DNA of 63,848 nt, counting the filler, from Neolecta irregularis DAH-3 (Eukaryota), in the NCBI GenBank assembly GCA_001929475.1. It is 9 parts of 9 records of this genome, joined end to end, with 100 filler letters (N's around TTAATTAATTAA, not from the genome) between each part and the next. Parts side by side here need not be neighbours in the genome. Positions count along the whole stretch, not along the records: positions 21,635 to 36,784 come from LXFE01000431.1; positions 36,885 to 59,595 come from LXFE01000434.1; 7 more parts are not named here. One strand, written 5' to 3'. Below, piece after piece: positions 24,675 to 59,595 of the stretch. Position 1 is the stretch's first letter. Each line of letters begins with the position of its first letter. A model generated the notes under the pieces. The model saw only the letters and a program-made list of their open reading frames with translations. It searched no databases and was not told the origin of the DNA. Position numbers and translations under genes: made by a program.

Positions 24675-27633
24675 CTACTCGGGGTTCATATCATCACTAG
24701 GTTCTTTTACCCTCCCTGTAACAGCAGGTTTCTTATCACGATCGCGTTCCTTTGAAATTCGAGTCCGCAGTTTATAAAATTCATTGTAATTCAGCCGTAC
24801 ACCGAGAAATCGCATCTCCAGATCTGGTTGGTGTGCTAATTCTGTTAAAAGGGAGGTTAAAACACCCCGAAAATTGGCGATTAGATTTGGAATTAGCTGG
24901 CGGAAATTATTTAGCTGATTTGCGTGGGGGACGGTTTCGTCTTGATGTGTTTGACGATCGTCTTCTTCTGTGACTCCCCATTTACCCTGTCAAGTCAGCT
25001 GCCTAATGATGAAAAAAAGTTTACGGCTGCTGTTCTGGCTTCAGCCCTTGATTTCCGTTGGAGATTCTTTAAATAAATCTGATGTGTAAGGCCATTTAAT
25101 TGTTCCTCGTAGTCATTTACATATCAAATAATGGAAAGTACCACAGCGTCCTTGAAATTAAGGATTGTTTTGAAGATTTCATGCAACTGATCCATCAAGT
25201 TCTGGTCCCGGCCATGTCTCATAGCACCTAATAATCCTTTATGCGTGATTTGGCTTAGATACCGTTCGTGAGCCTGGATGTATGTATCTAACGTACAGTC
25301 CGGCTTCGCAACCATAGCCTGTAATTTCTCCCATGAGGATTCAATAACCTATGTCTAGTCAACTACCCCCTCAAGCCAGCAAACCTCAAATTGGATGTAA
25401 TATTGCAGCTGACAAATAAAATGTGTCATTTCTGCAGACGCACAACGCACCGTTTGCCAATCTGACCCACACACATCCTTGACGACATTCAAAAAAGCTC
25501 TCTCTCCAATCACACTCGTTCTCCAAGTATTATTCAGCGCAAATTCCACGCGTTTCACCCTCCATAAGAAATTGAAAATTTTGAGATATTGTCTTGCGGA
25601 CCATGAAGTGACAATGACATCAAGAGGTGAATCGACTTTATACTCTAGAGTGAAAACATCCCATCCGATATCTCCGTGTGCCAACTCGAGCAGTCGAGCA
25701 TCTAGACGGCGTGTTATATCATCTGGATCATACTGAGCATTGGATCCTCGAATGGCGCTTTCAAGTGTTGCAGTCAAATTGTGACGATATAATAGACTGG
25801 CCTTTTGATCAAGACTCGACCTGGATTATCAGCAATAAACTGTTTCAATCATACTGTAATGAATCCATAAGAAGAGCAATGAAATCTCCTTGTCCAAGCA
25901 TAAGATATTTCTTAAAAGCGTGTAAATGCTCGAAAAGCTTAAATCGAGTTGTGATAAGATCATTTAATCGAGCGGTGGTGGTTTTGTAAGCCGAGTCTAT
26001 TGATACATCAAGTGTAGAAATATCCTCATGCGATAGACCTAACTGATGAGCGTATACTGGTCAAATAATCACCTCTGGAAGACGCTTTACTATGACTCTC
26101 CACCCATTGAACATCTCCACATCCATATCTTATAAAATTGAGACTCTTCCCGATTAAAAATATCTTCTGGGCAAGGATATCGGAAAGAAAAGGCGGTATC
26201 ATTCTCTCATCAATGGAATATCGACCTTCCCAAACATATCCGCTAGACTCTGATCGGCTATCCTGATTCCTGTTTTCCACAACAAAGAATTCTAGGAAAG
26301 GATCTTGAAGTTCGCCATCATAAATCCAGCGTTGCAACATTTCGTAAAATGATCGAGTGACCTCCTTCAACAACTTTTCTGCAAAAGCGTGGACAAAGGG
26401 ATCACCATGTGAAGAAAACCCGTGAAGACAACTAATCAATTGACCGCCCTTCTTGTCTATATCGTCAGCATCAAGTCGCGGATTCGACAAGCTACTCCGA
26501 GATTCATCTTTAATAACACTCATCAATCGTAAACCCAATGTGGCTTCTCGAAGCCATACAAGACACCTCTTCAAAGTTACTCCACCAGAGGCTTCATTAT
26601 CGGGCAGTCCGAGTTCTCTGCGAATTTCTCCTTCCAACGCAGCCACCAGATTTAAATATCCTATCAATTCCGTCGATAATGCAGCTACTAGACTTTGACC
26701 TACTAGTCCAGTAAGGGACAGTGGATCATGAGAGTTTGCGATATATGTTGATATGTCTTTGTACAGTAATCCGGGTTCTGATAGTGCTCGTAAGAGAGAC
26801 AATACGGGTAAAGGCAGTGTTTGAGGCAATGTCATCGTCGTAGGAGTTGAGAATTTGATATGTGTTGATGAAATTCCTTGTAAGAGAAAAGGTATATCTC
26901 GAAGTAGAGTTCTTTCTGAGGGCTCTTCAGGTCAATTTTCATGCTTGAAGAACTTGTGATTGGTACCCATCGGCCCTGGACCCCATCTTTGAATACCTTC
27001 GTTTCCACGCCCTCTGCTTTCTCGACCTTCTCTTCTATCGTCACATCCACGTCTCGGACTAGATTGAGACACAGAAAGACGAATATCAGAAATTCGATTG
27101 AGACCTTTGTTAGTTGATCTCGAAGTCGGACGCTAAAGGTTGGATTGAAAGGGTTCTAAATTTAGACGTACAGTGGATGCATTAGGCTCGGCCGAGTTGG
27201 CAAGCGATAAGCTGTATAGTAGATACAAGATTCCCCATTTATTACGAATAATTGGCTTTACTCAATATTGAACTGGTCTTGGAGATCATACCTGACTCTG
27301 TAGCCTAGAGAATAAATTTGAATAGCGCAATGTTGCTTCCGGGGAGGTGTTTTCACGCATGACTAGTGGTTAGGACGAGTATTCCTTCGAGCCCAAAGGT
27401 ACGCTTTGTCCGAATTTGTTCGGAAATATGATTTAGGTCTTCTTCAACGCTGGGAATTGGATTCCTCAAAGTAGTCAGCGTGCAATTAAGAACACAATAT
27501 ACGATGCGACAACGTTTCGAGCATGTTCAATTGCTTCTTGGCGAAGAGAAGCGGTTTTTTCGTCTTCGGGATCCAGTTCAAGTATTCCATCAACTAAACG
27601 CGCCAAGGCATCGGCAATTCGAGCTTCACTCAT
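24675..27633 (-). CDS. alp6: Gamma-tubulin complex component GCP3/Spc98 (Alp6)
   Basis: HGDPFV, WIYDGELQDPFLEFF, IFLIGKSLNFIR, YLMLGQGDF, GDIGWDVFTLEYKVDSPL. About 9 short introns. Confidence 0.92.
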
Positions 27634-28542
27634 CCACAAATTTCGAGTAACTGGTGAAAAATATGCGTTGAAAGGGATTGAAAAGATCGCGTTAAATGGA
27701 ATGTCGGTATACAGTCTGAGGTTGATGTCACGTTTCAATCCATGTTGCCCACCTGAATAAACTGGTTTACGCGTTTATGCCAGAAAGTACGCATTATAGA
27801 CCGGGAATCAAAGCATAAATCCTTACCTTGTAAACAGAGAACACCACAAGGAAAAGATATCGGGGTGGTCACAATATGAGGTGGGCTCAGATCTTGGGGC
27901 ATTGATGGTTCAGGTGTTGGGATCATATTCAATTAATGCGCCAGTTAGGACACTTTGCAGGCCAAGCGGCGCTAATGATGCTTGGTGTCAAGTTATGTGA
28001 AAACTTCCCTTCTCCATTCTACGAGATAGCTTTTAAACTTGTCTCATAGAGTACTGAGGCTCGAGAGGACGAATAATGTTGGCTTCAATACTCTTGTCAT
28101 ATATTAGAGCTATAGAGTCTTAAACTCAGCTGACAAGCTCAATTTGGCAAAAGGCTAGCTTGTCACTATTTCAGTCCAGGATAACGAGACCATCGTTTAT
28201 TGACAGCCTGCTCTATCTGATGATTCCGAGAAAATAATTTCTTATCTGCACTTGAATCGCCAATATCGAAAAGCTGCCTCGTTGTGCGCTCCCATATAGG
28301 ATTAGCGGGAACTTGGACTTAGTAACGATTTGCTCTCACTGGGCACTGAATAAAAGCACATGTAGTGATCTGTTCTACTGTCATCAGTTTCATGACTCGG
28401 GCGGTTAGGCTCAATGCAGTGATTAATGGAAAAAAAAGAGTGATCAACGCGTACTTTGAGACGCTCGAGGGGGCCAAGGTCACCACCACCACCATAATAA
28501 ATTTGTCTCAAAAAGATTTTCATATTTACAACTCTCATTCGA

Positions 28543-30213
28543 ATGGCTCATGCAGCACCTCGCTTACAGCCGCTAAAATTCCCAACTCTACCCGCGAATG
28601 AAACTTCAGATCAAAAGTATTGGAAGAAATTCAAGGTTTACCAGTGATTGCCCAACTTCCCACTCATCGATCTAGTCGCACCTTATCGTCAAAGAGTACG
28701 CTTCAGTCTCGCATGTGAATTTTTCTGCCACATCTCCGCATGATTTCGCCGTTACTTCGAGTACTCGCGTGCAAATTTATTCTTCGAGAACAAGAACTAC
28801 GATCAAGACGATCTCGAGATTCAAAGATACAACTTACAGTGGAGAGCTGAGACCGGATGGAAAATTACTGGTTGCCGGAGATGCCACTGGTTTGATACAG
28901 GTAAATATTCTTTATGAGCTATTGTCTTGATGGTTCGAAAGATTTTTGATACCTCCTCTCGTGCGATTTTACGTTCGATTGATTCACACAAATATCCCGC
29001 TCGCGTTACAAAATTCTCCCCTACATCATCAACTACTCTTCTTTCTGCATCGGATGATAAAACCCTCAAGCTTTGGGATATTCCTACACAAACCGCTATG
29101 AATACTTTCACAGGTCATGAAGATTATGTTCGGACAGCAGCGTTTAGTTCTAATTTGGTGATAAGCGGTTCATATGATGGGACGGTTAAAATATGGGATT
29201 CCAGGGCGAATATTTCTGTCACCAATCTGATACATGGAGATGGCATTGACTGTGTATTTCCACTGATCGGAGGGACGAGGTTTCTCAGTGCAGGAGGTCC
29301 GCTGGTTAAGGTGTGGGATATAATTGCTGGAAAATGTTTTAAAGAGCTCCGAAATCATCAGAAAGCTGTCACAACAATCACATCCGATTCGAATTGTGAG
29401 AGGATACTGACTGGTGGGCTCGACGGTCATATGAAAATCTATGATGTGAAAGATTGGAAAGTCGTCCATGGCGTAAAATATTCAGCGCCGATCTTGAGCC
29501 TTGCGTTATCTGTACACAAATTCTATTTCGCAAAACTAACTTGCAGCCGGATGATAAGCATATCGTTTGTGGAATGACAAGTGGACTTCTTTCAATACGA
29601 ACAAGACAGAATAAACCTCAAAATTCCACATTACCTAAAAAACCCAAACCGACTTCGTACCAACGGTTGACTCGAGGAGCAGACTACAAAGGCGATAAGG
29701 AGGATTTGTACGTCGAAGAATCCCGTACAAAGAGATTAAAGCCCTATGATAAAGCTTTAAGGGCATATAGATATGACTCGGCTCTGGACATGGTGCTGCA
29801 AGAAGTATGAAATTCTGAATGTAACAATTTCTGACCAGAAAGTCCAAAGATCCTCTCATCACTCTCACACTCTTCTCCGAGCTCATGCATCGAAACGGAC
29901 TTCAACAAGCATTACATAATCGCGACGATCATCAACTAGAGCCTGTACTTCGATTTCTCATTAGATATATTACAGATAGCCGTTTTGTGAACATTGTGAT
30001 CGAGGTAGCACTTACCATAATCGGTATTCAAAATTTACTCGCCCTTTTCTCACTCTAGAATTATATGGAAATGCGATTGGACAAAGTACGTTGACTGATG
30101 GATTGATACAGAAGCTCCGAATGCGTGTATCGCAGGAAGTTGAACGAGCCAAGGAAGCTTGCCGGACAGAGGGCATGCTTGAATTATTATTTGCTGGCTC
30201 AAGTATACGGTGA
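28543..30213 (+). CDS. UTP15: U3 snoRNP WD40 protein UTP15
   Basis: PHDFAVTSSTRVQIY, RPDGKLLVAGD, HEDYVR, NHQKAVT, GGLDGHMKIY and a UTP15 C-terminal domain. Five introns. Confidence 0.92.
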
Positions 30214-30374
30214 ACGTAGAATATACCTGGTTTTCAAATAAATTAGCGGAATTGGTGAACGCGACACAGCGCGTTTTGTCGATCTGAAATGGCGTCGACT
30301 ACGCCTTGTTGCTCTCTTACCACAACCTCCATCCATCTCACCCATTGTACTTCTTCGCTGTAACTTATACTGTA

Positions 30375-31040
30375 ATGCCTTCAAGGCCTACTACACTGTC
30401 CAAGCAGAAGACAATTAGCTGTTTTTTAAAGGGTTCGAAGACCTCGACACTTTCTGGGAAAGTAAACAATACCCCCAAAAATCGCCTATTCTGATTTTGA
30501 GATAATCAAGTCATCTTCAGCCAAGTTCAAACTAGATGTTTTGGAAAAGAAGTCTACGATCTTGAAAAAGGCGAGTGAAAAACCTCAGAAGGAGGCGTTG
30601 ACCGCTCGGAAAACGACCCTTTTGGACCGTGTATGCATTTCTAGCATTCACTATTAACATCATACAGATACGTGCAAAACAAGCAGAGAAAGAGAAAATA
30701 CCTATACTCACGCCTCGAGAACGGTTAGAAAAACTGGCTTTTTCGAAGCTTCCTGCAATTGTTGACGCGCTATATCTGTATGTTTTTTCGATGATACAAG
30801 CCCTAACGTGAAAGCATGACAATGCAGAAATCCTCCTTTGGTCACAGCGAGCTTTGTGAGAAATTGGTTCAAAGCTCACGCAATCCAATGTCGGTAGAAG
30901 AAGCTGCAATGTCAATTGACTTGTTATCGCGGCAAGTACCCGATTGGTGTACTGCAATTGTAGTTGGGAGAATAAAGGCTGTCAAATTTGATAGGAAAGT
31001 TCAGAGGAGGACAGTTCTCGAGACGATCAGATCGTTATGA
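30375..31040 (+). CDS. Short Cdt1 C-terminal-domain protein (about 183 aa), 3 introns
   Basis: TLLDRIRAKQ and LVQSSRNPMSVEEA...LL...VPDWC resemble the Cdt1 C-terminal winged helix. MCB-like CGCG motifs lie upstream at about 30259-30275. Confidence 0.65.
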
Positions 31041-31219
31041 ATGTCTGAGTAATACCAAGATGAATGGAATACCGGAGTATAGAGTCATAATTTGTATAGT
31101 TATAAATGTAATTGTTGATGATATTCAGGAATCAATACAACTCGATTGATAAGCTTGTGCAGAATGCGTACACCAAATCCCGACCATTATAAACAGAAAT
31201 CTTTTTGAATATTCCAAAG

Positions 31220-31702
31220 TTAGGTGAACCAACCTTTGTCTTTCTTCTCTTCAGCAGCTTTCCCTTTGGCGTCTGTTTCATTCACCATTTGGTTGAACAG
31301 TTTCTTTCCCTCTTCCTCTTTTTCAGCTATTTGGTCTTTTCGCTTCCCAAGTTCCTTTTGACCTGATCGGATGGCCCCACTCAGCCTTTCCTTGCCTTGA
31401 CCATAGGCCCCGTAAATCTTCTGGTCGACCTGATGGCCAATCTTCTGAGCGTCATTTCCGAGATGCTGGACATCCTTCTTCGCATCATTGGCAGCCTTGT
31501 TCACTACCCTGTGAGACAAGTTTTCAAGGATGGGATTACCATCACCGCTATTGTTATATAAATAATATCCAACGGCAGCTGCTGCGGCGGCAGTAAGCCA
31601 AATCGGTAGTGTAGATTTTCCTTTCAGAACAGTGCCTATAAAGTGAGCTTGGTAACTGGCAAAAGTAGATTTACGCGGTGGTGTTGGTGGTGGTTGTGTC
31701 AT
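31220..31702 (-). CDS. Small protein with an N-terminal membrane anchor and a LEA/hydrophilin-like charged tail
   Basis: Hydrophobic WLTAAAAAAVGYYLY, then a K/E/Q/A-rich helix ending in KGWFT. Confidence 0.65.
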   Translation of the reverse strand: MTQPPPTPPRKSTFASYQAHFIGTVLKGKSTLPIWLTAAAAAAVGYYLYNNSGDGNPILENLSHRVVNKAANDAKKDVQHLGNDAQKIGHQVDQKIYGAYGQGKERLSGAIRSGQKELGKRKDQIAEKEEEGKKLFNQMVNETDAKGKAAEEKKDKGWFT

Positions 31703-31770
31703 TTGAGCAAGGATGGAACAGAAATTGGAGGCGCGGAACTGGCATGGGATTTATAGGGGAATTCAAAAAA

Positions 31771-31779
31771 TTACGTCAT
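31771..31779 (-). promoter_or_regulatory. CRE/M26-type ATGACGTAA site (ATF/CREB, Atf1)
   Basis: About 70 bp upstream of the 31702 ATG, followed by TATAAA (about 31750-31755 on the minus strand). Confidence 0.5.
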
Positions 31780-31837
31780 GTACTGATAAATGTCTCACCA
31801 GTCCTAATGATCCATTCTCGAGCCTTTGAGAACTCTG

Positions 31838-33871
31838 TTACGATTCATAGGTTGCGAATACGTTTCCATACGACTTCCCATTACATATTAGCTCGAATAT
31901 TATCATCGATGATCCAAACGACATTGCTAGACCATACTCTATCCGGTAAAATTTCCGACCATCAACTCCGTCTCGGATCTTCAGTTCCTCCTTTGGGATC
32001 ACAGAAAGATCAACAACTAATTTACAAAGTGTTTTGACATCTGTGAAAATCAGCACTTTGCTATATTTATGTATTTGGAACCTGAATTCTTCAGAGGCGG
32101 CGGACTTTTGGAATCGGATACTTTGAGTTTGTTGGTGAAGACGAGCGAGTCCTCGAGAGCACAGTCTTCAAAGAATCGCACCAGGATTCTTTTTCCCGTC
32201 TTCACTTCATCACCCTCGATAAATTAGTCGGACCGAGATCCAGAGGACTACCTTGACACAAAACCACGTCATATTTCCCGAAGCCCAATATCTCCCGCTC
32301 AAACCACAGTAATAGAGGCTCTCCTTTGGGTGGATTAGAGGGTCGTATATTTTTGACATGACAACACCATAGCTTCTTCGTGCTATTCGAGAAGTAATGA
32401 TGTCATTTTTCATACCATGAATCACAGCTCCACGGACAACAGCAGACCAGCTAGCGCGTTAGCGTAGGTCGAAATATGGGTTTTACGCGTCCATGGGTTG
32501 CTGAATTGACACTTTAGGGAACAGTGCTTGCAGCACCTTTCGGAGATACACATTGCTTCCCAGACCTCCTACAAGAAATAAAGTCTGGTAATCAGTCAAG
32601 TTATTGTTATTCATCTCACCTTGACTTCTTTTTGTGCAGTCCGCACTATCGAAACAATCTGAGTCGAGACCAGCACGACGATCTTGGTCACAACAGGTTG
32701 AAAAACTATTTTCAAATCTGCCCTGTACGAATCAGTCGTCAGTTTTACAGAAAGTCGTACCTGGAAATTGTTAAAACCCCATCCGCGATGCCCGCTTCAG
32801 TATCGTCAACGTCATAGCCTGGCAACGATATTTTATACACCTCATTCTCATCGTCGGTCTCTCCGAATCGGACCTTGATTATTGAATTGAACTCTTTAAT
32901 CAAGCACGCTATGGATGTTTCAGAGAGAAGCTTTACATGTCTCTTTAAACGATTTCTCAAAAACTTCTCAAACCCTTGATTCAGGTCTGTAGACCCACAC
33001 AATTCGCCTATTCTCGGCATGGAGCTGGAGGCACAACGTACCTATCCCCGCAATTGCCTCCTTTAAGCTTAGAGGTTTATCTTTGAGGACTTTGTATGCA
33101 ATTAGATCTACAGTGCCTCCACCAGCATCAGTCACGAGGAATACATCGCCCGTCTAGCATCAACATCCACAACAAGGACAAAGCATACCTCGAAATGAAC
33201 ATAATTCTGCGCTACGCAAGCTAGAGCAGCAGCCTCCGGTTCCGTCACGAAACCTAATCTCATTTCCTCAAATCCGGCATTGACAGCCGCAAGTCGCAGT
33301 ATATTTCGTTCTTTATCATTCCAAAATGCCGGAACAGTCATGGTGGTTCGAACCTCGACTCTTGACAAGACATCAGTCCCAAACGTCAGCTTGAGCTGCC
33401 CGTCTAGGTGACTCTTTAAAAACTCTAAAAACGCAGTGACCACTTGCGAACCGGTTTTATTTGCAACTTGCGGTGCAAGTTGTTGTAATTCCGCGGGTGC
33501 GATATCATAATACTCTCCACAACGATCAGTCAACAACAATTTAAACCAAACTAAACGCTGATCGCCTCTTTGCAAAGTCTTTTCTAGAGCAGGTGCACCC
33601 CATGCCGAAATCTCTCGAGAGCTATTGCAGAATAAAACACTGGGACATCTACTAAATGATGAGTCGAGTTGTAGTTTGATGTCCCGATTTACTTGTCGTT
33701 GGAAAGGTTGCCCAGTCCCGGCCATGATTTGACGACTGCGATATTCTTGGGATTGCTGGAATGAGCAAATGCTAGACCCGAGAACGTCGTCCCGAAATCA
33801 ACTCCCACGACCTGTCCAGTCGGTGCTTTCTTAACTAATTGTCATACGATATAATCACTCTTTTCACTCAT
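31838..33871 (-). CDS. Atypical Hsp70-superfamily ATPase (HSPA12-like fungal family)
   Basis: VVGVDFGTTFSG, TVPAFW, VTEPEAAAL, DAGGGTVDL, LVGGLGSN, WSAVVRGAV, SRIARRSYG. Confidence 0.88.
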
Positions 33872-34379: not shown

Positions 34380-35712
34380 TCACAAAAGGGAACAGAAAAC
34401 AACAGAATCTCCAGCGATAACCATTCCATCTGATAAAAACTCTACAACTTTTCCATTGTCCACTATTTCCCCATCATCCTGCAAAATTTTCTGCACGGAA
34501 TATTTTGCCATGACGCCGCCCGCTTTAATAAACGCATGATTGGAATCATTGGTGCGTATGAAGGAGCCGTTTTGTAAGAGAATATCGTAATATGCATCTA
34601 ATTTATATATCGTCGTTGGCACCACTTTCTTTTTATGATGAAGAGTTGATGATTGGAGGGAGAGAGTTCGTAGGTGGTAGGCGGATGATCCAATCGCGTA
34701 GATTGACGAGTTTGAAATGGCAATATGATCTATCGGAATATCCAGAGTTTTAAAACTATGGGCGATAAACAGCGGATTATAAATTTCGATATTATTGACG
34801 CGTTCAACATGCATCAACTATGGTAAGTTTTTCAAAGTCAAGGGGAAATACATCTTTTGTGAAGTGTTGGCGGAATTCAGAGATTTCAGCAGACATTGTA
34901 CTGATAAGTAGTCGTTCTCCTGCGTCTAATACTTGTACCGCAGAAGGAAAATCTAGGCCCCAAATAACCTGCGACGCAGCATCGATTCGCGCATTATAAA
35001 AAAGAACAGATCCTCTTCTACCAAACAGTCTGTTTTCCAAAGATTTCCAAAGACCGGTGAGTCCATAGGTATTTGAAATGTAAAACGAGGGGAGAAAAGT
35101 GCCCGGTTGATCAGAGACGACTGCGATTTTATTGGGGTAATTAAACAAGGGATCTGAAATGCTTTGTTTCCAGAGTAAAATATTGTTATTTTGGATTTGA
35201 AAGACATCGACTACGAATACCGTTGAATTTGGATAATTAATAATTAATAACAGTCCATTGTGAATGAAAAGTCCGAGGGGATGAAAAGCATGTGGGATTC
35301 CACGAATTTCAAGTTTCTCGACAGGAGATCCAGAAGAGTATTTATATACTGCGCCATCGGGTTCATTCTGAGGAAGGAGGGAGGCTCTGTTGAGGGTATG
35401 CAGATGTGCAAAATTCGAAGGGTCGCACGATAGATAAGCCGTGTTTTCCGAGCGGTCCACCGCGATATCGAAACAATTGTGTGTTTCTTGATTCAGCGGG
35501 ACTATGGGACGAAAGAGTACGAGAAATGATTGTACATTTATCAGAGTGCAATTTTTCTACAGCGATGGGGCGGGATTTTCCATGCAAGATATTTTGCTTG
35601 TAGACTCTTGATTAGCGGGGAAGAGGGGTTTAATACTTGGGAGGTAAGAGAGGGCAGAGAGAATGAGGATGAAGAAGGAGAGGAGGATGTATTGAGGAGA
35701 AGGTTGAGACAT
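34380..35712 (-). CDS. Paraoxonase/arylesterase-like six-bladed beta-propeller with an N-terminal signal/anchor
   Basis: Hydrophobic N-terminus plus FHPLGL, PLFNYPNKIAV, FYISN and GLDFPSAV, which resemble PON-family blade motifs but are divergent. Confidence 0.6.
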
Positions 35713-36582: not shown

Positions 36583-36884
36583 CAGACGATAGGCGGACTC
36601 AGCGGGGCGGCCAGAGGGTGGTGGAGCACCCGGCAACACCCGCGCCGCCCGGCAGTCTCCGAGCGCTTCCCCCCTCCTCTCCAGCGATGGCCAGTGCGCC
36701 GGATGGCCTGTTTGCCCGCAGCAGCGCCGCCGAGCCGCACAGCCCTGTCTGCAGCACCAGCAACAGCCCCGCGCAGCCGCAGCCNNNNNNNNNNNNNNNN
36801 NNNNNNNNNNNNNNNNNNNNNNNNNNNNTTAATTAATTAANNNNNNNNNNNNNNNNNNNNNNNNNNNNNNNNNNNNNNNNNNNN

Positions 36885-38864: not shown

Positions 38865-41617
<2,753 letters not shown>

Positions 41618-45477: not shown

Positions 45478-48425
45478 ATGCTCTCCGAGGTCTTGGAAAC
45501 CAATGTTGCTACCAAGCCCTTGGAGTCTGCAGAAAATCGCGTGCCTTTGGAAATACCATTAATCAGAGCTACTTCCGCCCAAACCCACAATCATAAATAC
45601 CCGATCAATAACATGATTAAAGAGGAGCAAAAAGTAGAGGAAGAGCAGGAAAATGCGCAAGAAGAGCCAGCAAAAACGGCCCCGGTTTACTCTACGATCG
45701 TAGCCGTAGCTTACTTTAGGCAGCAAACTCTTTTTATGTAAACGAGGGAACAAAAAGAGTACTCTTTATTATCGAGCGCTCCAAGGTTTATAGCAATTTT
45801 GTCGCAGAACAAATGCTTCGTCTCTCCAATCGAACCCACATGACAGAGGAAGCAATTGAACAGAAACAAAAACGCAAAGAAGAGCGGGAGGCGAAGAAAA
45901 CTACTACCTCCTCTAGGAAAAGCACTCGAAATTCCGCTAGCGCTACTCAATCGAAATCTAACGGAAGTACCAGCAATAGCAAAAGGTCCGCTGCAGGAAG
46001 AAATATCAAGAAAAATGTGACTCTACTCTCACAAGAAGTTGATCTCGACGTTGTTTCCCCAGTTGATTGTTGTTTTAATGTTTTTAGGTAATTAAAAAGG
46101 CTCAAGTTGCCCAGACTGCAAAAGAGGCACTCGAGATTGGGGCCAAAGAAGAAAAGGATTCTAATATGGAAGGAATGACCAAGCCTACAAAAGGAACCCG
46201 TCAGCCGGAACTCGTCACTGGTGGTACCATGAAAGACTATCAGCTTGCTGGTCTTGAGTGGTTGATTTCACTATACGAAAACGGATTGAACGGCATCCTT
46301 GCAGACGAAATGGGTCTCGGCAAAACTTTGCAGACTATATCTTTTTTCGCATTCCTTCGCAGTAAACAGATCTATGGACCTTTCTTGGTTGTCGCTCCTC
46401 TATCGACACTTTCTAACTGGATCAATGAGTTTGAAAGATTTACCCCAGATATTCCGGTGTTGATGTATTATGGACCACCCCCAGAACGTCAGCAATTACG
46501 TACCGAATATCTGACTCGAACTGGTTCCGATTTTCCAGTAGTAGTCACTTCATACGAAATGATTATGCGAGATCGTCCCATGTTGAATAAATTGAAGTGG
46601 AAATATATAGTCATTGACGAGGGTCATCGGATCAAGAACTTGGACTGCAAGTTAGTGCGTGAATTGTCAACTTATCAGTCCGCCAACAGGCTATTGCTCA
46701 CGGGAACACCTTTACAGGTATCGTTGATCTAGCTCACTATGCTAATTCTCAGAATAATTTAACTGAACTATGGAGTTTATTGCATTTCCTGCTACCCGAT
46801 ATATTTGCTCTTCAGGATCTTGATTATTTTCTGAGTTGGTATGTTTTTTGATAACTATTTCCTGATGTCAAGGTTTGATTTTTCTGCGCTCCACACTGAA
46901 GGTGGCATGGATCAGATTCTTGATCAAGAACATCAAAACAAGATTGTTTCAAATCTTCATCAGATTTTGAAACCTTTCTTGCTACGGCGACTCAAGTGTG
47001 ATGGTATTTTGCCTCTTTGCTTTGACTCATGACACATAGTCGAACTTTCACTGCCGAAAAAACGCGAGTATATAATATATGCACCTTTGACTCCCAAACA
47101 AGTAGAACTTTACGAGAGTACTATAAATCACCAAATACGAGAACTTCTCACAGCTCAAATGGATAGCCGAAATTCGCCTGCTCCATCCGCCGCTAGTAGC
47201 CGAAAACGTAAATTCGAGGATGATACATCGGATACCGATTCTCTCCCAAGCAGTAAACGGCCAAGAACGCAATTATGTTACAGAGAATTAAATGATGAAG
47301 AGTGGTTTACACAAATGGAAGCCCTTGTGAACAGTGCTCCTCGAGAAGCGGATACAGAGACATTAAATCCTGATACAAAAATCACGACAAGTATGTTGAC
47401 ATAGTCTTTTTATTTTCCAATATTTTAGAAAAGCGAATAGCCAGCCTGAGACTTCAAAATCTCCTTATGCAATTGCGCAAAGTATCAAATCATCCTTACC
47501 TCTTTGACTGGCCGACTGTTGGGGATACAGATCTACTACTCCTCGATGAAAAGCTTTTAGAATCATCAGGCAAAATGATTTTGTTGGACCGATTGTTGAC
47601 CGCTTTGCTTGAACGAGACCACAAAGTATTGATATTCAGTCAGTTTACTACGATGCTTAATATCATTGAACTTTGGGCTGAAGATCTCAAATTCTGGAAA
47701 GTTTGTCGTATTGACGGGGATATTAAGCAGGAAGATCGTCGTCAAGAGATCCAAAATTTCAATACAGATCCCTCTATCCGTATCTTTTTACTTTCAACCC
47801 GAGCTGGTGGTCTCGGGATTAACTTGGCTGCAGCAGATACTGTGATCATCTTTGACTCGGACTGGGTATCTATGTTCTTTGCATCTTTTAATCTATATAG
47901 AATCCACAACAAGATATACAGGCACAGGACCGTGCACACAGAATTGGGCAAACTAGGGTTAATCACTTGCATTTTTCACTGCATATTCGCTAAATCAATA
48001 GCCAGTCATTGTCTACAGATTCATATCCGCAAACACAGTCGAAAGCAAAATTCTCGCAAGGGCAACCGCAAAACGAAGATTGGAAAAACTAGTCATTCAA
48101 AAAGGAAAATTCCAATCATTCATTCCTGTCAAAAAGACCGAACAAGAATCATTTAATGAATTATCAGAATTGTTAAAACGAGACGATTCCGAGAAATTTA
48201 TTGTGGAGAATGTGAAGGATCAGATTTTAAGTGATGCCCAGATTGATATACTTTTAGACAGAAGGTACCCGGTATTGCTTGAAGAGAATCTGCTAAAAGA
48301 AATCTAGTGATGAAGCATATGAACAAGCACTGGCTGGTAAAGATGTTGTTGATAAGCGGTTTCAAGTGGTAAAGGAGCAAATCAATGATGATTCACTCGG
48401 TATCAAAACCGAAAAAGAGGAATAG
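45478..48425 (+). CDS. SNF2-family chromatin remodeller, HELLS/LSH/DDM1/Irc5 subfamily
   Basis: QPELVTGG.MKDYQLAGLEWLISLYENGLNGILADEMGLGKT, DEGHRIKN, LLSTRAGGLGINL, KRRLEKLVIQKG. No HAND-SANT-SLIDE or bromodomain tail. Confidence 0.88.
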
Positions 48426-48434
48426 TATTCATTT

Positions 48435-49981
48435 TTATTTTTCAGTATGTATTGCACGTTTGAGCATTCCACAAAAACTTTGAAAAAGCAAGGGTTCAGT
48501 TCCTTGAAGCCATTTTGTAAAAATTGTTGAAGTGTCATCGAGAATGTTGAATTGAATTTTGATTTTTACGCGCATGACTGGTTCTTTTGCTGCTGTTACT
48601 GATACTCCTCTGCTTGCAGATCGTCGGGCAGCTCGGGACCATGTATTTCCAAAGATCTCTGCACATCCTTCAAGATGGTGAGATGACCAGGTCCATTGGA
48701 GCTGATTTCGCCGAATTATGAGATTGATTGTATTAATCCAAGTCTGTTTGGTAAACCCTTTAGGACATGAAATTTTAAATTCTGTAGATGGAGGAAGAAG
48801 AGATGATAGTGAACCGACTGGTGGATGAACGATTATCTTTCAATTAGCCAAGTAGCTTTTCTATCGCTTACATTGGAAGGCCGTCGATCGCTAAATGACC
48901 ACGCTACAACCCATCTTTTTGTACGATTACCCTGCATAACCGTTCCCAAAGCATAGTTGCTGATCTAATAAATCAGTAAACGAAAATACCCCAAAAAAAC
49001 GTTTTCTTCTTTCAGTTTTTCAACGATAATTGTTAGCGATGATAATTTTCCTAGTATCGAGGTGAACCATTGTATCTTATCCCTTACAGCTTTGCTCTCT
49101 TCAATCATTCTAGCTACGAATGCAGCTTCTCCGCCTGGCGTAATCATCTCGCTTTCAGAACCGGTACAAGAACTGAATGCAGGATACGATTTCTCACGAG
49201 CTGACTGCAACATTTCCTCGACAGATTCATAAAATGGAGGGTTACACATGGTAAAATCGAGTCTATTCTTGTGAAATTACCCGTTTTCACTATTATACCT
49301 GTCTATTTTGAATTCAAGTAATGGGAATAAGGATGTTTCTTTTAATGTGAAAAGAAGCTTGATTTGTGATTCCAAGTGATTCCGTTCAACGTTTGCGACT
49401 GCATAATTATACGATTTTTCATCAATATCTATAAAGTCAATATTATATTGCAAGAAACACTAAACCGGTCCCATATACTTTCCATTTCGGCCTAGTCTTG
49501 CAGGCCAAAATAGGATATATACACGTTGATCCGGCGCCTATATCCAGTCCACTGACATCTCGTTCAAGATCATAATCGAAATCATCGGTTGATGGATCAG
49601 TCGAGTCAACAAGATCTTGAATCCATAGAATATAGTCGAGTCTCCCTGGAACCTTGATTTAACAATCTGTTTGATTATATTGGAATACTGGAGGGCATAG
49701 TCTATCTTGAGGGATCTCGAGGTCGACTCCAAAATCACGTTTCATAAGACATCGTGTCAATTCACTGTGAACCATGTTAAACCCTGGAGACATCGATTCT
49801 TACACGAGCGCTTTAGGGTTGTTGAAATCAATGGTTAAACGGCCGGGTTCACATTCAACAACACTTTCTGCTCCACAATCCATATAAATGGAAACGGTAC
49901 ATACTATGGTGCGAATTCCGGATATTTATTAGCAAGTTCTGAAAAAGCTGGTGGTGAAGAATATGGATTTCGAGGGTGCAT
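48435..49981 (-). CDS. mtl16: METTL16/RlmF-family RNA m6A methyltransferase (U6 snRNA methylase), 7 introns
   Basis: MHPRNPY start, [47 protein letters not shown]. Confidence 0.9.
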
Positions 49982-50026: not shown

Positions 50027-51642
50027 ATGCCGACTGTTCGTTTATCTGTGCCGCGAATTGGAATAGTTGGTTCGGGACCTGCTGGTTTCTATACGGCGTA
50101 TAAACTGCTCGGTCTTGTTCAAAATGCAATTGTTGATATGTATGAGGCTCTGCCTGTGCCTTTTGGTTTAGTCAGATACGGAGTCGCTCCAGACCATGCA
50201 CAAGTCAAAGTCAAAAATCCCACATTGTCAGAAGAATGCTGAGACCGTTGTTAGAATTGTAGGCATAAATTCGAAGAGGTTGCGTCGTCTTCGAGGTTTA
50301 ATTTTATTGGAAATATCTCAGTCGGTCGGGATATCAGTCTTTCAGAGATGAAAATGGCTTACCACGGTCTTGTACTGGCATATGGAGCGTCAAAGGACAA
50401 AAAACTCGGGATTGAAGGTGAAAATACTCTTAATGGTGTATATTCTGCCAGATCCTTCGTTGGATGGTACAACGGGTTGCCTGAATTTCGCAATCTTGAA
50501 CCGAGTCTCAAGTGTGGAGATGTTGCAACGATAATAGGTCAAGGTAACGTTGCTCTGGATATTGCGCGGATTCTTCTTTGTGATTTCGATCATCTGCGGA
50601 AAACGGATATACCAGAGTACGCTCTCCAGGCATTACACCAAAGCAAAATTAGAAATGTGAGGATTGTTGGAAGACGGGGGCTATTGCAAGTCTCGTTATA
50701 CTTTAATTATGTACTGATAACTAGGCAGCATTTACCGTGAAGGAACTTCGAGAACTGTCACGCCTCTCAAATGTCACTTTTGTGTCTGCGGGCGTCATAC
50801 CAACTGTTTCTGAGAGCGGGGACTTGACTCGAGCGCAGAGACGTATGATTGAGTTGATGAATAGTCTTGTGAGCAATAGTGCTCTGGCAAGGTCGTGGTC
50901 GCTAGACTTTCTGCGGTCACCGCGCAAACTGCTTGCAAAAGAAGCCGATTCTAAAAGCCTCGGTTCTGTTGAGTATGAAGTGAATATGCTGCAGTCTGAT
51001 GGCAATGGAAAAGTTGGAGCTGTGGGCACGGGAACATTCGTGATGGAACCAACTGATTTGTTGTTTAAAAGTATAGGGTACCAAAGCAAACCACTTGAAG
51101 GGTACCAGGAGATTTCTCTTCCATTTGATGTACGGAGAGGATTTGTTCCGAATGTCTCCGGAAAGGTCATTGATCCAGTGAGTGGAGATTTCTTGCCGGG
51201 GGTGTATGTCAGCGGGTGGGTCAAGCGAGGGCCGACTGGGGTCATTGCAAGCACAATGCAGGATGCGTTTGAAACGGCGGAGAGGGTTGCTTTGGACTGG
51301 ATGGAAAGAGGTTTGTTTCTCCAGCCAAAGGAAGAAGCGTGCGGGGGATGGGAAGAGTTGAGGGAAGTTACGGCGAGACGAGGGCTGTTTCCTGTCTCGT
51401 GGCAAGGATGGAAAAAGATCGATGCGGCAGAAGTGCAGAGAGGGGCGATAGCAGGAAAGGAACGAGAAAAGGTTGTGAATGTGCAAGATATGCTGAATAT
51501 ACTTGAAGATTACCGCGGTTGTCAGAGATTCAACAGTTTTTCTACTTCCTCGGCGATAGCGAGTGCACTTGTCAGCCCAGGTGATTCTATGCCGAGGAGG
51601 TTGACGATGCCGGGTTGTGGGTCCTGTATGATAAAGTCGTGA
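50027..51642 (+). CDS. ARH1: NADPH:adrenodoxin oxidoreductase
   Basis: [50 protein letters not shown]. Confidence 0.95.
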
Positions 51643-52725: not shown

Positions 52726-52986
52726 GTGTGTGTGATGGAATTAATGGTAATGGTAGTGGTGGGCTAGGCGATGGTGGTTGGTTTAGGGGATAAGTAACAG
52801 GCGACGGTGGTTGGCAGACGGCGACAATCTAGAGGCAACCGATCATAGCTGGTGGTTAGGGTAACGGTGCTCGGTGATAGACAAGCCGGTGGTGGTTGGC
52901 TCAATGACAGGCCGCAGGGATGGCAGGAAGCGGTCGCGGGCCGCGTTGAGCCGACTGGATTTGCGAGCGGCGCTCCACTGCACTCC

Positions 52987-54084
52987 ATGTCTGGCGATCC
53001 CCGCCGCCGCAGCCTGCTCTCGATTGTCTCGTACAGGAGCGACTTTTCGGCGGAGTCAACATCGCCGAATGGTTCGCCAATGAACTCGTCTGTGGCCCTG
53101 TCGTCTGCTCCGCTGTCGCCCAGCCTGACTGCCTCCCCGACTGCGTCGTCGCCCACCATCATGTCTGCCCTCGACTCGGCCCTTGACTCGGCGCTCCTCG
53201 TTGCAGAACTGCCCGCCCTCGTCCCGCCCAAACGGCCCTCTTCGACCGGGTCGGGCATCTTTCGCAAGCACAAACCCGCGGCACCCGTCCTCTCCTGGTC
53301 CCCCAAACTCTACGTCCTCGTCCGCGGCACCCTCCTGCGTTTCAGCACAGACAAGCGGCACCAGCGCGTGCCCGAGAGCGTCTTTGTCTTCACGGCGGCC
53401 TCCATTGTGCGGGTCACCGATGCAATCCCGGGCTCACAGTGGGTCCTGCAGGTCTCGCCCACCGCCGCCCGCTCAGCCGCCGTCGCCTCGTACTTTGCAG
53501 ACTCCCCGACCGAGTTGCCCGCCGACTGCTGGTACCTGGTCATGCCTGATCCCGGCCGCATGACCGTGTGGATGCGCACCATGCGCGACCAGATTGCCGC
53601 AGCAAAGCGCGACCAGATCGCAGCCGCACGGAGCGAAGCCAGCAGTCCCACCCCCGCACTCGACGCCAATGCCCGGCCAGTGTCCACGGCATGCCTCTTT
53701 GGCACCGACGCTGGCAAAGACGCGTTCTGTCCCGCAGCCGCCTCCAAGCCCTACTTCAAAGACGCTCTCTCGTCACTCACCACCAGCCTGCTATCGCGAG
53801 ACTCCATCACCGAAGAGCCATCCCGCCCACAGACACCGCATTCATCCCAAGAGCCTTCGCCCAGAGAATCTTGTTCGTCAGACAGTTTCGCTCCAGCCAC
53901 GCTTGCTACTCGCCGCGACCAATGTTCAAAGCTCGCAAATCTCCACATCCTGCCGCCGTTGAAACCCCCACCGACTTCTCCCTTGCCTCCGCTGCCGGCG
54001 TCTCCAGCATATGTCTCCCGCAGGAGACGTCGCATAGTAAACGCCAGCGAATCCGACCAAACATCCTCCGAGGACCAAGACTAG
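52987..54084 (+). CDS. Ser/Pro-rich protein with a probable PH domain
   Basis: Intronless ORF with a PH-like core W..KLYVLVRGTLLRF...VTDAIPGSQWVLQV...MTVWMRTMR. Confidence 0.7.
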   Translation: MSGDPRRRSLLSIVSYRSDFSAESTSPNGSPMNSSVALSSAPLSPSLTASPTASSPTIMSALDSALDSALLVAELPALVPPKRPSSTGSGIFRKHKPAAPVLSWSPKLYVLVRGTLLRFSTDKRHQRVPESVFVFTAASIVRVTDAIPGSQWVLQVSPTAARSAAVASYFADSPTELPADCWYLVMPDPGRMTVWMRTMRDQIAAAKRDQIAAARSEASSPTPALDANARPVSTACLFGTDAGKDAFCPAAASKPYFKDALSSLTTSLLSRDSITEEPSRPQTPHSSQEPSPRESCSSDSFAPATLATRRDQCSKLANLHILPPLKPPPTSPLPPLPASPAYVSRRRRRIVNASESDQTSSEDQD

Positions 54085-54168
54085 GCCTGTACTCTTTCCT
54101 TATTCATCTCATAGCATATATAAAGTGGAGGCACTTTTGGCGCACTCGGCAATCAATTAGAATTACAC

Positions 54169-55068: not shown

Positions 55069-55148
55069 TGTAAATTTGTGGTCCGTATTTTGCGTATTTT
55101 GGAGGTTGGGTAGATAAGAGTTCCCAAAACAATCTATTAAACGTATTC

Positions 55149-57135
55149 TCACAACCCATAAAGATGATCTAGCTCTGTTTGTAACCTCTCTGCTTCCTGC
55201 TGCAATTCTGTTAGACTATCTTTTAAAATGGACGCTTCATCGTATTTCCGGCGGGCGTTCGCCTCATGTAACATCTCCTGGACGAGAAATATCTGTTCTT
55301 CGAGCACCATTAAAGCCTCCCTCCTAGCCGTTTCCTCTTTCTCAGATATACCTGTACTAAACGGGATTTGAGGGGACTGTGTACTTGTCGACGTTGGCGT
55401 TGAAATGCCCTGCACTCTGAGAGTTTTAGGAAGCATCTGCAGCGGTAACATATGCTGTTGAAGAAACGCGGTGGCTCTTTGATGAATTGCATCTTGAATT
55501 CGGTGTTCTGCTATTCCTTGTGTTTGCAACTGTTTTATCCGTTTGGCGCAGGCATCATAATTTCCAAAAGCATCCAACAATTTCTTTCTAATTCTAGAAG
55601 CTTGACTAATTTCTAGTTCCGACGGGGAATTTTCTGTATCTCTAGATAAATTAAAAGGTCTCTATGGAAATGCACGGTACTGTAGAAGAGCAACCATTTG
55701 ATGGAATTTTGGCAGGAGTAACTCTATCCCCGTTTTGAAATCATTCAGGTTCTTTGAAAATCAGCGATGAGAAACATACTAATCGTGACCTTGTAAAGAC
55801 GAAAAAGTCTAGAAAGATCTCCATCTTCATGAGCCAAACCAGATCTCCCAAAAGTGAGTCCGTGGCATCCTCGACATATTCGAATATCAATAACATCATT
55901 ATTCTCGCTTGCTGTGTCTCCGAGAACTTGGGACTTGGTAAACAGTAATAATCGAGACATACCATCAGCCACGTCGATGCCTATTTCCGCTGAACATCTG
56001 GAGCTAGAATCGGCACATACTACTCTCCCACAAAGTCGGCAGTGATGTTTTCTTAATATAAAACTAAACATCTGACTAGAAAATTAGACACTGCGTAGGT
56101 AGATTATCATAACTTGCAGAAGGGACAATGCAGCACAGAAGGATTTTCCTGCCATGCCACTACAGACTGTTCCAGCATTTTTCTCTGACTTTTCATAGAT
56201 GCAATGCTTCGAAATACTCCTGATGGCAGCTCTATAGTAGGAGGCTGAATTAAAAGTCGAACAAGCTGAGATTAGATGCCAATAAATTCCAACAAATAAC
56301 CTTTTGCAACCGTTTTGCATGACGATTTGCTTCCATCGACTGTTTCTCCACTCCTACTTGACGAATACATTTAAAAGCCTCAGTATGATCTCGACTAGAC
56401 CCTGGAGAATTAACAAATATTAGATTTCGATGTATACCACTATTATCTAAATAACCTTGTCTCGATTTAAAACATCCTTCACATACTCGAGCCCACACAC
56501 CACGAACTGGTTCATGACTCGCAGATCGAGATAATTTGATTTGAAAAAATGTATGCACATTACAATACAACCTTCCACATTTCCGACAATTAATTTTACC
56601 TGTTCTTGAATTCAGGAAATCTTTACACATGGGATCAGAACAATAGTCGCAAGCGGACTCGGGTTGCCAATGCGCTCTTGTAATCATATCATCTGAATCT
56701 CGACTAGTTTCAAGTAAACTCGATTCAAAGGATATTTCTCCATTGCGTTCAAATGGTTCTGGTAAGCCGAGTTTTTGGTGAATTGCAGCGACAGGAGCTA
56801 AATTGCGAGCTTTCGATACTCGCTGTTTTAACCATGCTTTTATTCCAACTTGGTGCACGATATCGGCGTACTCTGAATGAACGTCATCGAGGTGTTGATT
56901 AAGCTGAGAGAACGCAATCTGAGAATTAGCCTAGCGGATCCGGAAAATAGACCATCGTCTCGGAACATATAGGACAAACTAGATTTGGTTCTATATCTTC
57001 GGTAGCCGATAGCCTGACCGGTTGTAATGGTGTTTTCCGGCCAATGACTCGGGTTTGCATTATATACCGTATTAATATCTTCACAACTCCTATCGATTGT
57101 GGAGGTGAGGTTTCTGCCCCCGCGCCCCTCAACAT
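55149..57135 (-). CDS. PEP7: Pep7/Vac1 (rabenosyn-5) double-FYVE protein
   Basis: C2H2 CPIC...QLNQHLDDVH, NCRKCG, RKHHCRLCG and a C-terminal Rab-binding coil (LEEQIFLVQEM..A...RKYDE). Confidence 0.92.
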
Positions 57136-57156
57136 TTCTAGACAAATCTTTTATAA

Positions 57157-58232
57157 ATGATAGACGATATTCATTCACGAGCTCTCGAAACTGCAGATTT
57201 CCTCAAAAATTCTCTACCAGATGCAGTTAAAACACCACGAGTCGGTATCATTTGTGGTTCTGGGCTCGGAGGTCTCGTAAATGCTCTTTCGGCAGAATCT
57301 CGGGTACAAATCGCATATTCTGCGATCCCGAATTTTGCCATTAGCACTGGTATCAAACCCCAAATATAACAGGGGCTGAAACAAAAACCTCTAGTCCAAG
57401 GTCATGCGTCGAAGCTCGTTTTTGGTCTTCTTGGAGAAAAACAAGTGGCGACCGTTGCTATGGTTGGTAGATTCCATTTCTATGAGGGATATGATATGAA
57501 AACCGTCACTTTTCCCATTCTTGTTATGAAACTTTTGGGAATTGAAGCTCTTATTAGTATTTTCCTTCAGTATAATGCTAACTACGAGTTACAAATGCAG
57601 CCGGAGGATTGAACGAAAATTATGCTGTAGGCGACATTGTTCTCGTTAAAGGTATATTTATTTTAATTTTTTGTCTGACAATCAAGATCATTTGAATCTA
57701 GCTGGAATGATTGGAATGCATCCTCTTCGCGGACCAAACGATTCCAATTTTGGGGTCCGATTCCCTGCTTTATCTGATGCCTATGATCTTGAATTACGCA
57801 AAGCTGCATTTTCAGTCCGGAAAAAGGTTATGACTGGTAAAAGAAATATGTATGAAGGAATCTACGCCTTTGTTGCCGGTATTCAAATCATCTGTTCATT
57901 CTTACATTTCAGGGCCAAGTTACGAAACTCGTGCAGAGGCAAGAATGATTCGAAATCTTGGTGCAGACGTCGTAGGAATGTCGACATGCCCAGAAGTCAT
58001 CGTAGCAAGACATTGTGACATTCGTGTTCTTTGTTTGAGTCTTTGTACAAATAAGGTCATTCTAGATGAAGGACCCTCTGCACTCGGTCAAACAGACTCG
58101 AAGCAACAGAGCGCAAATATTTCTTTAGCAGAAGGCAAAACTAACCATGAAGAAGTCCTCATCGCTGGACTCGAAGCATCAAACGATTGTGAAAAAGTCG
58201 TTGCGGGTATTGTAGATATGTGCTTTTCCTAG
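57157..58232 (+). CDS. PNP1: Purine nucleoside phosphorylase, 4 introns
   Basis: IICGSGLGGL, GRFHFYEG, TNAAGGLN, GPSYETRAE, GADVVGMST. Confidence 0.96.
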
Positions 58233-58260
58233 TATATAGAGTGAATAGAAGTATGACAGT

Positions 58261-59595
58261 TTATCTTAAATTCACATGTGCCATAATCGCTAGGTGATCT
58301 GATGCAAACCGTCCCTCTGAAGGTTCCCCTTCAGCCGCCATCTCATTCTCTTCAGGCAATCGAAGTAACCCAGTCAACTTGATAGAGTTTCCATTTTTCT
58401 CTTTGGTCATGAAGATATAGTCCAGCGTGCCTCGATAAACCTCGAAATTAAACTTGTGCTTGAAACAAGCATACCTTGGCCCAATTGGTAAAAGGGGGTT
58501 CTCCCCATGGTTTACGAGCATTACCTGGATGCACGCTTGTGTATCCGAGCCCATATAGACTCTGTAAACATGGCAAGCTGTTGTGTATCTGTAAAATGCG
58601 AGGTAATTTATCACGGAGATCTGAAACATCAGTCTGATAATACACTTCAGGATCCATAGAATCGACATCCTCGTCTTCGCATTCTTCTTCAAGTTTCTTT
58701 TTATACCGATAATTCATCGATTCTTCAAGAATTTGGATTTCAGTCTGGTCAAGTTCAATTGGACGTTGCGTCATGGCTCGATAAGTCGGATCGACTGGTT
58801 CTGTATTAAAATCTGCCGCAAAAATCGTTTCGTCTGCGAGAACTTTGGATTCTTTCGTAAATTTCATCACTTGGTCGATAAATTTTGCCGATTGTATCAT
58901 TCTTTCATATGTAGCAGCAGGATGCCAAAACAAATGAGTAGTTGCTACAGCAATGTGTTTTTGCGGGGTAGTATTAATCATGGTGAACAATGCCACAAGC
59001 CCAATATTCCTTGTTTCCATCCGAAGTCTGATATCACTGTGCAAAGGTTCATCGAGATCAATAGTTTTCCGAGAAGACAGCGCGAATTTCTGTTTGCTCC
59101 ACATGACGAGTAAGCCATGTGTCTTTCTTGCTCCACTGTCAAAGATATGTCCATAGTTGAGTTTTTCCGCTAAAGGGGCGAAGAAAGAATCTAATTGAAC
59201 TATATCTACTTCCTTGTGGTCAGCAGGGCAGCCAGAGACGGAGGTACTTGAAGGCACAATATATCAGGTTGATAAAACTCAAGCTCGGCTGCCAGCATTT
59301 TAGATCGATTCTTCCATTTCAATGTTTCTCCTAGAGAATCGTCAACGTCAAGCTTTTTGAGTAGAATTTTGTACCGTTAGTCGGAAAAAGAGTCCGCCGA
59401 ATCAATGTCTGTGCCAGAACGTTGTATGTCATGATTGAGACTGAAGAAGATGTTGGACAGGAATTTTTTCGATTTAAAAATAACAATTCCCGTTTGATGA
59501 AGTTTGTATTAAATTCATTTCGAGGTGCCGCTTTGTATGCGAGGGGTTTCGCTTTCTTTTCTGCATCTTTACGAGCTCTCTGAGCAGCAATGTAC
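58261..59595 (-). CDS. NGL/Ccr4-like EEP-family RNA exonuclease (5' end truncated by gap)
   Basis: MTYNVLAQ, CLQEVD, TTHLFWHP, ADFN, LDYIF, SDH. Confidence 0.9.

Follow-up and report, generated by a model that had tools for sequence, protein, structure and literature searches.

A 3' splice site is defined by just three bases, one of which is the pyrimidine at position -3 (YAG), and under the classical scanning model a GAG competes poorly and gets bypassed. What reads the -3 base (the alpha-finger glutamine of Prp8) and what measures distance (the ruler Prp18) are so far known through yeast mutants. Published fungal figures put a pyrimidine at -3 in 93% of introns in Fusarium (a purine, RAG, in 5.69% of 2,022 introns) and in 92% in N. 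crassa, as given in PMC5677156, which also cites 89% for five other fungi pooled, S. pombe included; AAG is described by Schirman et al. as seldom seen in fungal genomes (PMC8496845). The shortest natural distance from branch to 3' splice site given for S. cerevisiae is 10 nucleotides (nt; same counting as here; PMC10711555), and an S. pombe reporter with 6-nt spacing is described as dependent on Sde2 (PMC9508853). Here we analyze the introns in a window of 63,848 bases from the fungus Neolecta irregularis, in which an original prediction, made without database searches, had noticed frequent GAG and AAG acceptors. Homology to known proteins confirms fourteen such acceptors at the exact junction, and their frequency in the window exceeds chance. 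We propose that the 3' splice site is probably set mainly by position, with the first AG past the branch being used whatever base precedes it.

Junctions were tested in three ways, all blind to the -3 base. For competition between hidden Markov models (HMMs), we scored all frame-preserving GT-AG alternatives within 45 nt (within 60 nt for aspartokinase) with homolog HMMs from which the Neolecta protein had been left out; for Pfam continuity, single exons were compared with Pfam and profile positions had to run on across the junction; for PDB continuity, single exons were compared with PDB sequences and the residue numbering was compared within one chain. At several junctions Pfam continuity proved too coarse, among them SNF2 46839-46872, UTP15 29805-29842 and a few loops of cullin. 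Altogether 45 junctions were fixed by continuity in an HMM, in Pfam or in PDB, so that removal of the intron restores a conserved continuous protein there, and fourteen purine acceptors, six GAG and eight AAG, were thereby pinned to the residue. The GAG introns and candidates, with the evidence for each, are as follows.

39858-39890, plus strand: cullin-1 GAG intron, 33 nt, with an in-frame stop; Pfam, HMM and public annotation P0122
57557-57588, plus strand: PNP GAG intron, 32 nt; PDB PNP chain residues 112 / split codon / 114, Pfam positions 74 / split / 76
58441-58474, minus strand: NGL-type nuclease GAG intron, 34 nt; annotation P0121 and PDE12 alignment
25106-25141, minus strand: GCP3 GAG intron, 36 nt, with an in-frame stop; annotation P0001 and HMM competition
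27465-27502, minus strand: GCP3 GAG intron, 38 nt; annotation P0001 and HMM competition
32215-32251, minus strand: Hsp70-like GAG intron, 37 nt, additional to those of the original prediction; HMM competition
35605-35636, minus strand: paraoxonase-like GAG intron, 32 nt; annotation P0193 and reading frame only
30462-30501, plus strand: Cdt1-like GAG intron, 40 nt; frame analysis
4298-4330, minus strand: separase candidate GAG intron, 33 nt, in frame and without a stop

The eight intervals of the original prediction are all present as described, beginning with GTA and ending with GAG, the Cdt1-like one lying on the plus strand. Most of them were said to require splicing, and seven of the eight indeed must be spliced because their length is not a multiple of three or they carry an in-frame stop, with separase 4298-4330 as the exception. 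At the level of the exact junction the claim holds by homology for five of them (cullin-1, PNP, NGL and both in GCP3), while the sixth, in the paraoxonase-like gene, is backed by annotation and frame, and the Cdt1-like acceptor is plausible. In cullin-1, position 206 of the Pfam Cullin profile closes the upstream exon and position 207 opens the next; the GAG comes out on top of 13 alternatives in an HMM of 44 homologs, with the next best 28.3 bits lower, and the putative branch A lies 6 nt before the 3' G. The PNP gene (57157-58232, plus strand) contains four introns that end in all four NAG acceptors (TAG, GAG, AAG and CAG), and its five exons cover residues 22-60, 63-112, 114-133, 135-196 and 198-248 of the human PNP chain; because the missing residues are split codons plus one unaligned residue of exon 2, all four introns are placed to the residue. 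The public NGL product uses the GAG intron and aligns without gaps to PDE12 across residues 257/258, and this ungapped alignment runs on through the C-terminal catalytic motif. A GCP3 exon is 95% identical to a Neolecta irregularis DAH-3 protein that its source names alp6, a component of the spindle pole body, and all 11 annotated GCP3 introns score highest in HMM competition; in an HMM of 50 homologs, the GAG intron at 25106-25141 is the top of 6 frame-preserving alternatives (the best one with another acceptor, CAG, is 12.3 bits lower) and that at 27465-27502 the top of 4 (the best one with another acceptor, again CAG, is 9.2 bits lower). The Hsp70-like GAG intron ranks first among 11 alternatives (HMM of 22 homologs), and the public model P0194 ends before it. 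For the three remaining loci, an AAG 2 nt upstream of the paraoxonase-like GAG would break the frame, and a search for homologs of this gene found only Neolecta's own protein; in the Cdt1-like gene the GAG supplies the first AG past a CTGAT motif, with an in-frame AAG 9 nt downstream (end 30510) equally open and a CDT1_C domain in a downstream exon; and the N-terminal exon of separase gave no match against PDB. The eight AAG acceptors fixed in the same way are the following.

57652-57686, plus strand: PNP AAG intron; PDB chain residues 133 / split codon / 135
49653-49688, minus strand: METTL16-like AAG intron; Pfam Methyltransf_10 positions 78/79
39281-39315, plus strand: cullin-1 AAG intron; better of 2 alternatives, the other 8.5 bits lower
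39484-39519, plus strand: cullin-1 AAG intron; HMM competition and annotation P0122, a +4/+4 shifted TAG version being only 0.6 bits lower
27256-27291, minus strand: GCP3 AAG intron; annotation and HMM competition
26925-26966, minus strand: GCP3 AAG intron with an AG directly after the acceptor; annotation and HMM competition
13528-13568, plus strand: aspartokinase AAG intron; top of 7 alternatives (HMM)
13650-13686, plus strand: aspartokinase AAG intron; top of 9 alternatives (HMM)

One explanation would be that the GAG and AAG acceptors are boundaries misplaced by the original prediction, by the public annotation or by our own gene finder, which relies on codon usage and intron signals with no -3 term. 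Such errors do occur: in genes with independent models, the gene finder placed 18 of 20 short introns correctly (about 90% precise) and both errors were GAG, it made five false short introns that were all GAG, and the public annotation cuts the Hsp70-like model short and includes one cullin intron whose ends are not GT-AG. Against this stand the fourteen purine acceptors whose place Pfam, PDB or HMM continuity settles at the level of single residues, and for which the alternatives score lower; these sequence comparisons already contradict misplacement for the validated set, and we consider it very improbable as a general explanation. The five false GAG introns (26923-26966, 38867-38897, 51102-51137, 55148-55185 and 24506-24544) were removed by hand. 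One was a displaced GCP3 junction, one extended the cullin gene at its 5' end, one lengthened a small heat-shock gene at its C-terminus, one merged the Rabenosyn-like gene with Sec62, and one covered a stretch that, judged by the bovine enzyme, is probably adrenodoxin-reductase coding sequence. The gene finder also fused neighboring genes (UTP15 with the Cdt1-like gene, the Rabenosyn-like gene with Sec62, and the Hsp70-like gene with a downstream open reading frame (ORF)), and a scan for introns by motif alone was unspecific, with 238 and 203 matches in the window versus about 300 in shuffled sequence.

Several further gene models deserve a comment. In cullin-1, the public model removes 43 nt at 39165-39207 (plus strand), for which no placement of the gap gives GT-AG ends (best GT..GC); the homolog HMM favors the public product by 10.6 bits over the sole frame-preserving GT-AAG alternative, 39165-39222, and the gap could reflect non-canonical splicing or an assembly indel. 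The Hsp70-like gene (31220-33725, minus strand) is represented by the public P0194 (335 amino acids), which reads into an intron and stops; a longer model has at least 7 introns, and homologs align over about 510 residues. Two annotated aspartokinase introns on the plus strand look doubtful, as the HMM favors an impossibly short 22-nt version of 14028-14073 by 11.8 bits, and a donor 9 nt downstream for 14184-14276 (93 nt) by 6.9 bits. The second paraoxonase-like intron (minus strand) is ambiguous between the public 35487-35520 (AAG) and the gene-finder version 35502-35535 (TAG), which have the same length and frame and differ by a 15-nt shift. Separase (minus strand) extends past the stop at 911-913, with Peptidase_C50 positions 2-187 in the ORF 914-2008 and positions 188-327 in the ORF 471-893. 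The joining intron, 894-925 (32 nt), appears to be GC-AG because the stretch between the two ORFs holds no GT, and it carries a CTAAC 6 nt before its TAG. Since separase continues through 471-893, the plus-strand ORFs at 3-809 are antisense shadows.

To describe the -3 position across the window we used a curated set of 110 introns, which consists of the gene-finder introns with validated models substituted and the five false GAG calls removed. The -3 base is T in 42, C in 33, A in 27 and G in 8, so that 35 of 110 introns (32%) have a purine (GAG 8, 7.3%; AAG 27, 24.5%) and 75 of 110 (68%) a pyrimidine, compared to about 90% for canonical YAG acceptors. By class of evidence, the homology-validated introns (n = 45) have C16 T15 A8 G6, the annotation-only class (n = 1) C0 T0 A0 G1, and the gene-finder-only class (n = 64) C17 T27 A19 G1; the validated class is made up of an earlier 42 introns (C15 T14 A7 G6) and three PNP introns validated later. 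Counted over the whole window, 6 GAG introns are proven by homology and adding the unproven ones brings the number to 8-9, which is 5-8% of about 110 introns and agrees with the original estimate of about 8 GAG among roughly 100-120. That AAG is the commoner of the two was likewise borne out (27 versus 8 in the curated set, 8 versus 6 among the validated introns). The AAG share is 18% in the validated class (8/45) and 30% in the gene-finder-only class (19/64), and we therefore take 17-25% as a fair range. Overall, the composition at -3 (A 24.5, C 30.0, G 7.3, T 38.2%) diverges from that of the intron interior (A 26.6, C 23.5, G 15.0, T 34.9%) by 0.05 bits, and it is also near that of positions -4 to -10, where G makes up 8-15%.

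For a control we turned to metagenome contigs, took from them 80 GCP3 loci belonging to other fungi, and placed their introns de novo by the same -3-blind HMM competition. This de novo search replaced a control based on annotated metagenome proteins, which gave only 2 introns; it returned 53 tight junctions, 4 of them Neolecta's own, and the other 49 reduce to 37 unique introns from 33 loci. Of Neolecta's 11 known GCP3 introns the method regained no more than 4, each of them identical to the known intron. The control introns (median length 51-52 nt) have C25 T8 A4 G0 at -3, which corresponds to 33 of 37 pyrimidines (89%) and 0.75 bits, and three of the four A's belong to one orthologous intron. 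The published fungal figures agree with these control introns. Purines at -3 are significantly more frequent in Neolecta (35/110 versus 4/37; Fisher p=0.017), also when compared to an expectation of 5.7% (binomial p = 2e-17) or 11% (p = 4e-9). The prediction that the -3 rule is relaxed and 3' recognition altered is thus partly supported: the -3 base is nearly free of information in Neolecta (0.05 bits versus 0.75 bits in the control GCP3 introns), and the choice of 3' site therefore differs in practice from the YAG rule, while the changed splicing factor invoked to explain this is plausible. It might be argued that there is nothing special here, in that a weak -3 preference is normal for Taphrinomycotina with short introns and Neolecta lies at the end of a continuum. 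S. pombe branch points are also close to the 3' end, about 12 nt on average as given in PMC9508853, and AAG is spliced well in the yeast reporters described in PMC8496845. However, the pooled figure that includes S. pombe is still 89% pyrimidine (as cited in PMC5677156), and the control introns placed by the same method are 89% pyrimidine with no G, which makes this explanation unlikely. Purine-tolerant acceptors thus seem unusual among fungi.

Judged by their sequence, the Neolecta introns belong to the ordinary U2-type GT-AG kind, yet at a median of 36 nt in the curated set they are very short, and their putative branch sits close to the 3' end. All 110 have GT-AG ends, by construction for the set as a whole and by homology for the validated ones. 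Their donors are weak: 77 of the 110 begin with GTA, and of the 41 introns validated by then, 17 have a G at +5. An expectation-maximization (EM) search over the last 30 nt of each intron recovered a branch-like motif, (G/T)(C/T)T(A/G)A(C/T), a degenerate yTrAy that comes from motif inference and not from mapped lariats, and that we presume to be the real branch point. The distance from the motif A to the 3' G has its mode at 7, falls within 6-10 nt in 72 of 110 introns and is at most 10 nt in 80 of 110; a branch finder based on regular expressions gave a median distance of 8 in Neolecta versus 11 (mode 10) in the control. We applied a simple rule, under which the acceptor is whichever AG comes first at a distance of 5 nt or more downstream of the branch A. 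It gives the acceptor actually used for 40 of the 42 introns validated by then and for 100 of the full 110, and validated introns pass over AGs that lie 4 nt from the motif. In every validated GAG intron the GAG supplies the first AG past the branch motif, with the next AG at least 7 nt further, and in PNP the GAG is used although a CAG sits 12 nt downstream. We also considered U12-type introns, and rejected them: the RTATCCTT donor has 4 matches in the window versus 4.13 expected, none of them at these introns, and the GAG introns have U2-type GTA donors.

Together, these observations point to a 3' splice site that is probably set mainly by position. The first AG about 5 nt or more downstream of the branch adenosine would be taken as the 3' site irrespective of its -3 base, the -3 base would then drift toward the base composition of the intron, and the exon-ligation machinery would have to tolerate purines at -3, as we infer that it does in Neolecta. 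This architecture, in which the branch sits 6-10 nt away from the 3' end and the AG that comes first serves as acceptor, fits the data at least as well as a changed factor. Several points weigh against it. Agreement with the first-AG rule is in part circular because the motif was sought within 30 nt of a known 3' end. G at -3, with a share of about 5-7%, is still about two-fold depleted relative to intron composition, and some discrimination at -3 therefore remains. The validated class is enriched for GAG because its genes were picked for GAG, so that the window total is the unbiased GAG figure; 64 of the 110 introns rest on the gene finder alone, whose errors favor GAG and perhaps AAG. The control consists of one gene family from metagenome fungi (n = 37), against which the difference in G at -3 is not significant (8/110 versus 0/37, p=0.20), and -3 frequencies for S. 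pombe, Pneumocystis and Saitoella did not turn up in the literature that we searched.

In the positional reading the GAG and AAG introns would be spliced efficiently, with GAG acceptors sitting in constitutive introns of essential genes. Alternatively, the GAG introns might be genuine and yet spliced inefficiently, being regulated or retained. GAG is a poor substrate for exon ligation in wild-type yeast according to PMC12707134. In the curated set, each of the 8 GAG introns begins with GTA, their mean branch-motif score is the highest of all (4.58 versus 3.3-3.9) and 5 of the 8 have a G at +1, features that hint at compensation and could be just that, although the numbers are small. However, the GAG introns lie in single-copy core genes (cullin-1, GCP3 and PNP), and 7 of the 8 would truncate the protein if retained. 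Poor splicing thus appears quite improbable to us.

A different possibility is that a specific change in the spliceosome, in the Prp8 alpha-finger glutamine, Prp18/Slu7, Prp22 proofreading or U2AF35, removed both the -3 check and the minimum branch distance. Such a change is compatible with the positional reading and would be its molecular cause. In yeast, prp18-delta activates branch-proximal sites (to 7 nt) as well as GAG and AAG sites, and Prp18 is presented as a minimum-distance ruler (PMC10711555), while Prp8 Q1594A is reported to relax the -3 requirement such that a proximal GAG beats a distal UAG (PMC12707134). The same pair of features is seen in natural Neolecta introns (distance mode 7, 32% purines at -3). 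This likeness to mutant phenotypes is an analogy, however, and the Prp8 DNA in the window is only a fragment interrupted by frameshifts and a stop; on balance we hold a spliceosome change to be possible, with less confidence than we give to position. Tentatively, exon ligation in Neolecta might be measured from the branch by a ruler of about 6-10 nt and leave the -3 base unread, through a lost or remodelled Prp18 loop, Prp8 alpha-finger contact, Prp22 check or U2AF35. The Prp8 fragment (10117-11310, minus strand) matches Pfam U5_2-snRNA_bdg at positions 37-103 and 98-134 in two different frames. Further downstream blocks, broken by frame changes and a stop, appear Prp8-like when judged by the human sequence. 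The fragment has the appearance of a pseudogene, or else of a contig rich in errors, and is unusable for the alpha-finger.

The nine contigs of the window are joined by spacers (N44, a 12-base six-frame stop string and N44) at 5841-5940, 10017-10116, 12583-12682, 17414-17513, 21535-21634, 36785-36884, 59596-59695 and 61438-61537, and since the parts are separate contigs, features are not to be read across the joints. Three long, GC-richer ORFs on the plus strand are intronless, with intron-dense genes as neighbors: 21751-22656, 52987-54081 and 59697-61112. Among them are a bZIP/Aft1-like factor, a protein with a weak PH domain, and an ORF of 472 amino acids without a Pfam match. An Rfam scan of the window found no family. 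The paper describing the Neolecta genome gives 14.5 Mb, an N50 of 16 kb, 44% GC and 5,546 genes, 99.4% of which are 'supported by RNAseq data', and the words 'intron' and 'splice' are absent from its main text (PMC5309816); in the ortholog counts of Cisse et al., 1,211 orthologs hold 4,202 Neolecta introns (PMC7940399). No paper dealing with Neolecta splice sites emerged when we searched the literature for Neolecta in connection with introns or the spliceosome. Any gene finder that has learned YAG acceptors will get gene models of this genome wrong, and public models in the window already carry errors.

Compared to known systems, the Neolecta introns share with S. pombe-type short introns their GT-AG ends, a yTrAy/CTRAY branch near the 3' end and the lack of room for a pyrimidine tract before the AG. 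They differ in being shorter (median 36 nt), in a branch-to-G distance with mode 7 versus an average of about 12 in S. pombe (PMC9508853, where distances are counted differently), and, relative to fungi generally, in a -3 pyrimidine preference that is almost gone, versus the 89-93% given in PMC5677156. Like the first-AG scanning model, they use the first AG past the branch (100/110) and skip AGs 4 nt from it; unlike that model, a proximal GAG is used in PNP despite the CAG 12 nt downstream. U12-type introns have a short, fixed branch-to-3' distance and a loosely defined 3' end. The Neolecta introns resemble them in these respects, but not in the donor, as they have no RTATCCTT. The combination that marks relaxed fidelity, non-YAG and branch-proximal 3' sites, is found here as 32% RAG and 80 of 110 distances of at most 10 nt, and the GAG and AAG acceptors and AGs fewer than 10 nt away from the branch are shared with prp18-delta and Prp8 Q1594A yeast. 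In those mutants, however, such events are cryptic and low-level, whereas Neolecta shows the pattern as a wild type, and in constitutive introns that belong to core genes. If our reading is correct, a wild organism that ignores the -3 base and places its 3' site 6-10 nt from the branch would offer a natural test of the models built on yeast mutants, bearing on how 3' sites are chosen once introns shrink to about 36 nt. Neolecta acceptors would then represent a variant of ordinary U2-type splicing, for which the literature we searched holds no prior description, and, if a fidelity element has been lost or remodelled, a natural counterpart of the prp18-delta and Prp8 Q1594A mutants.

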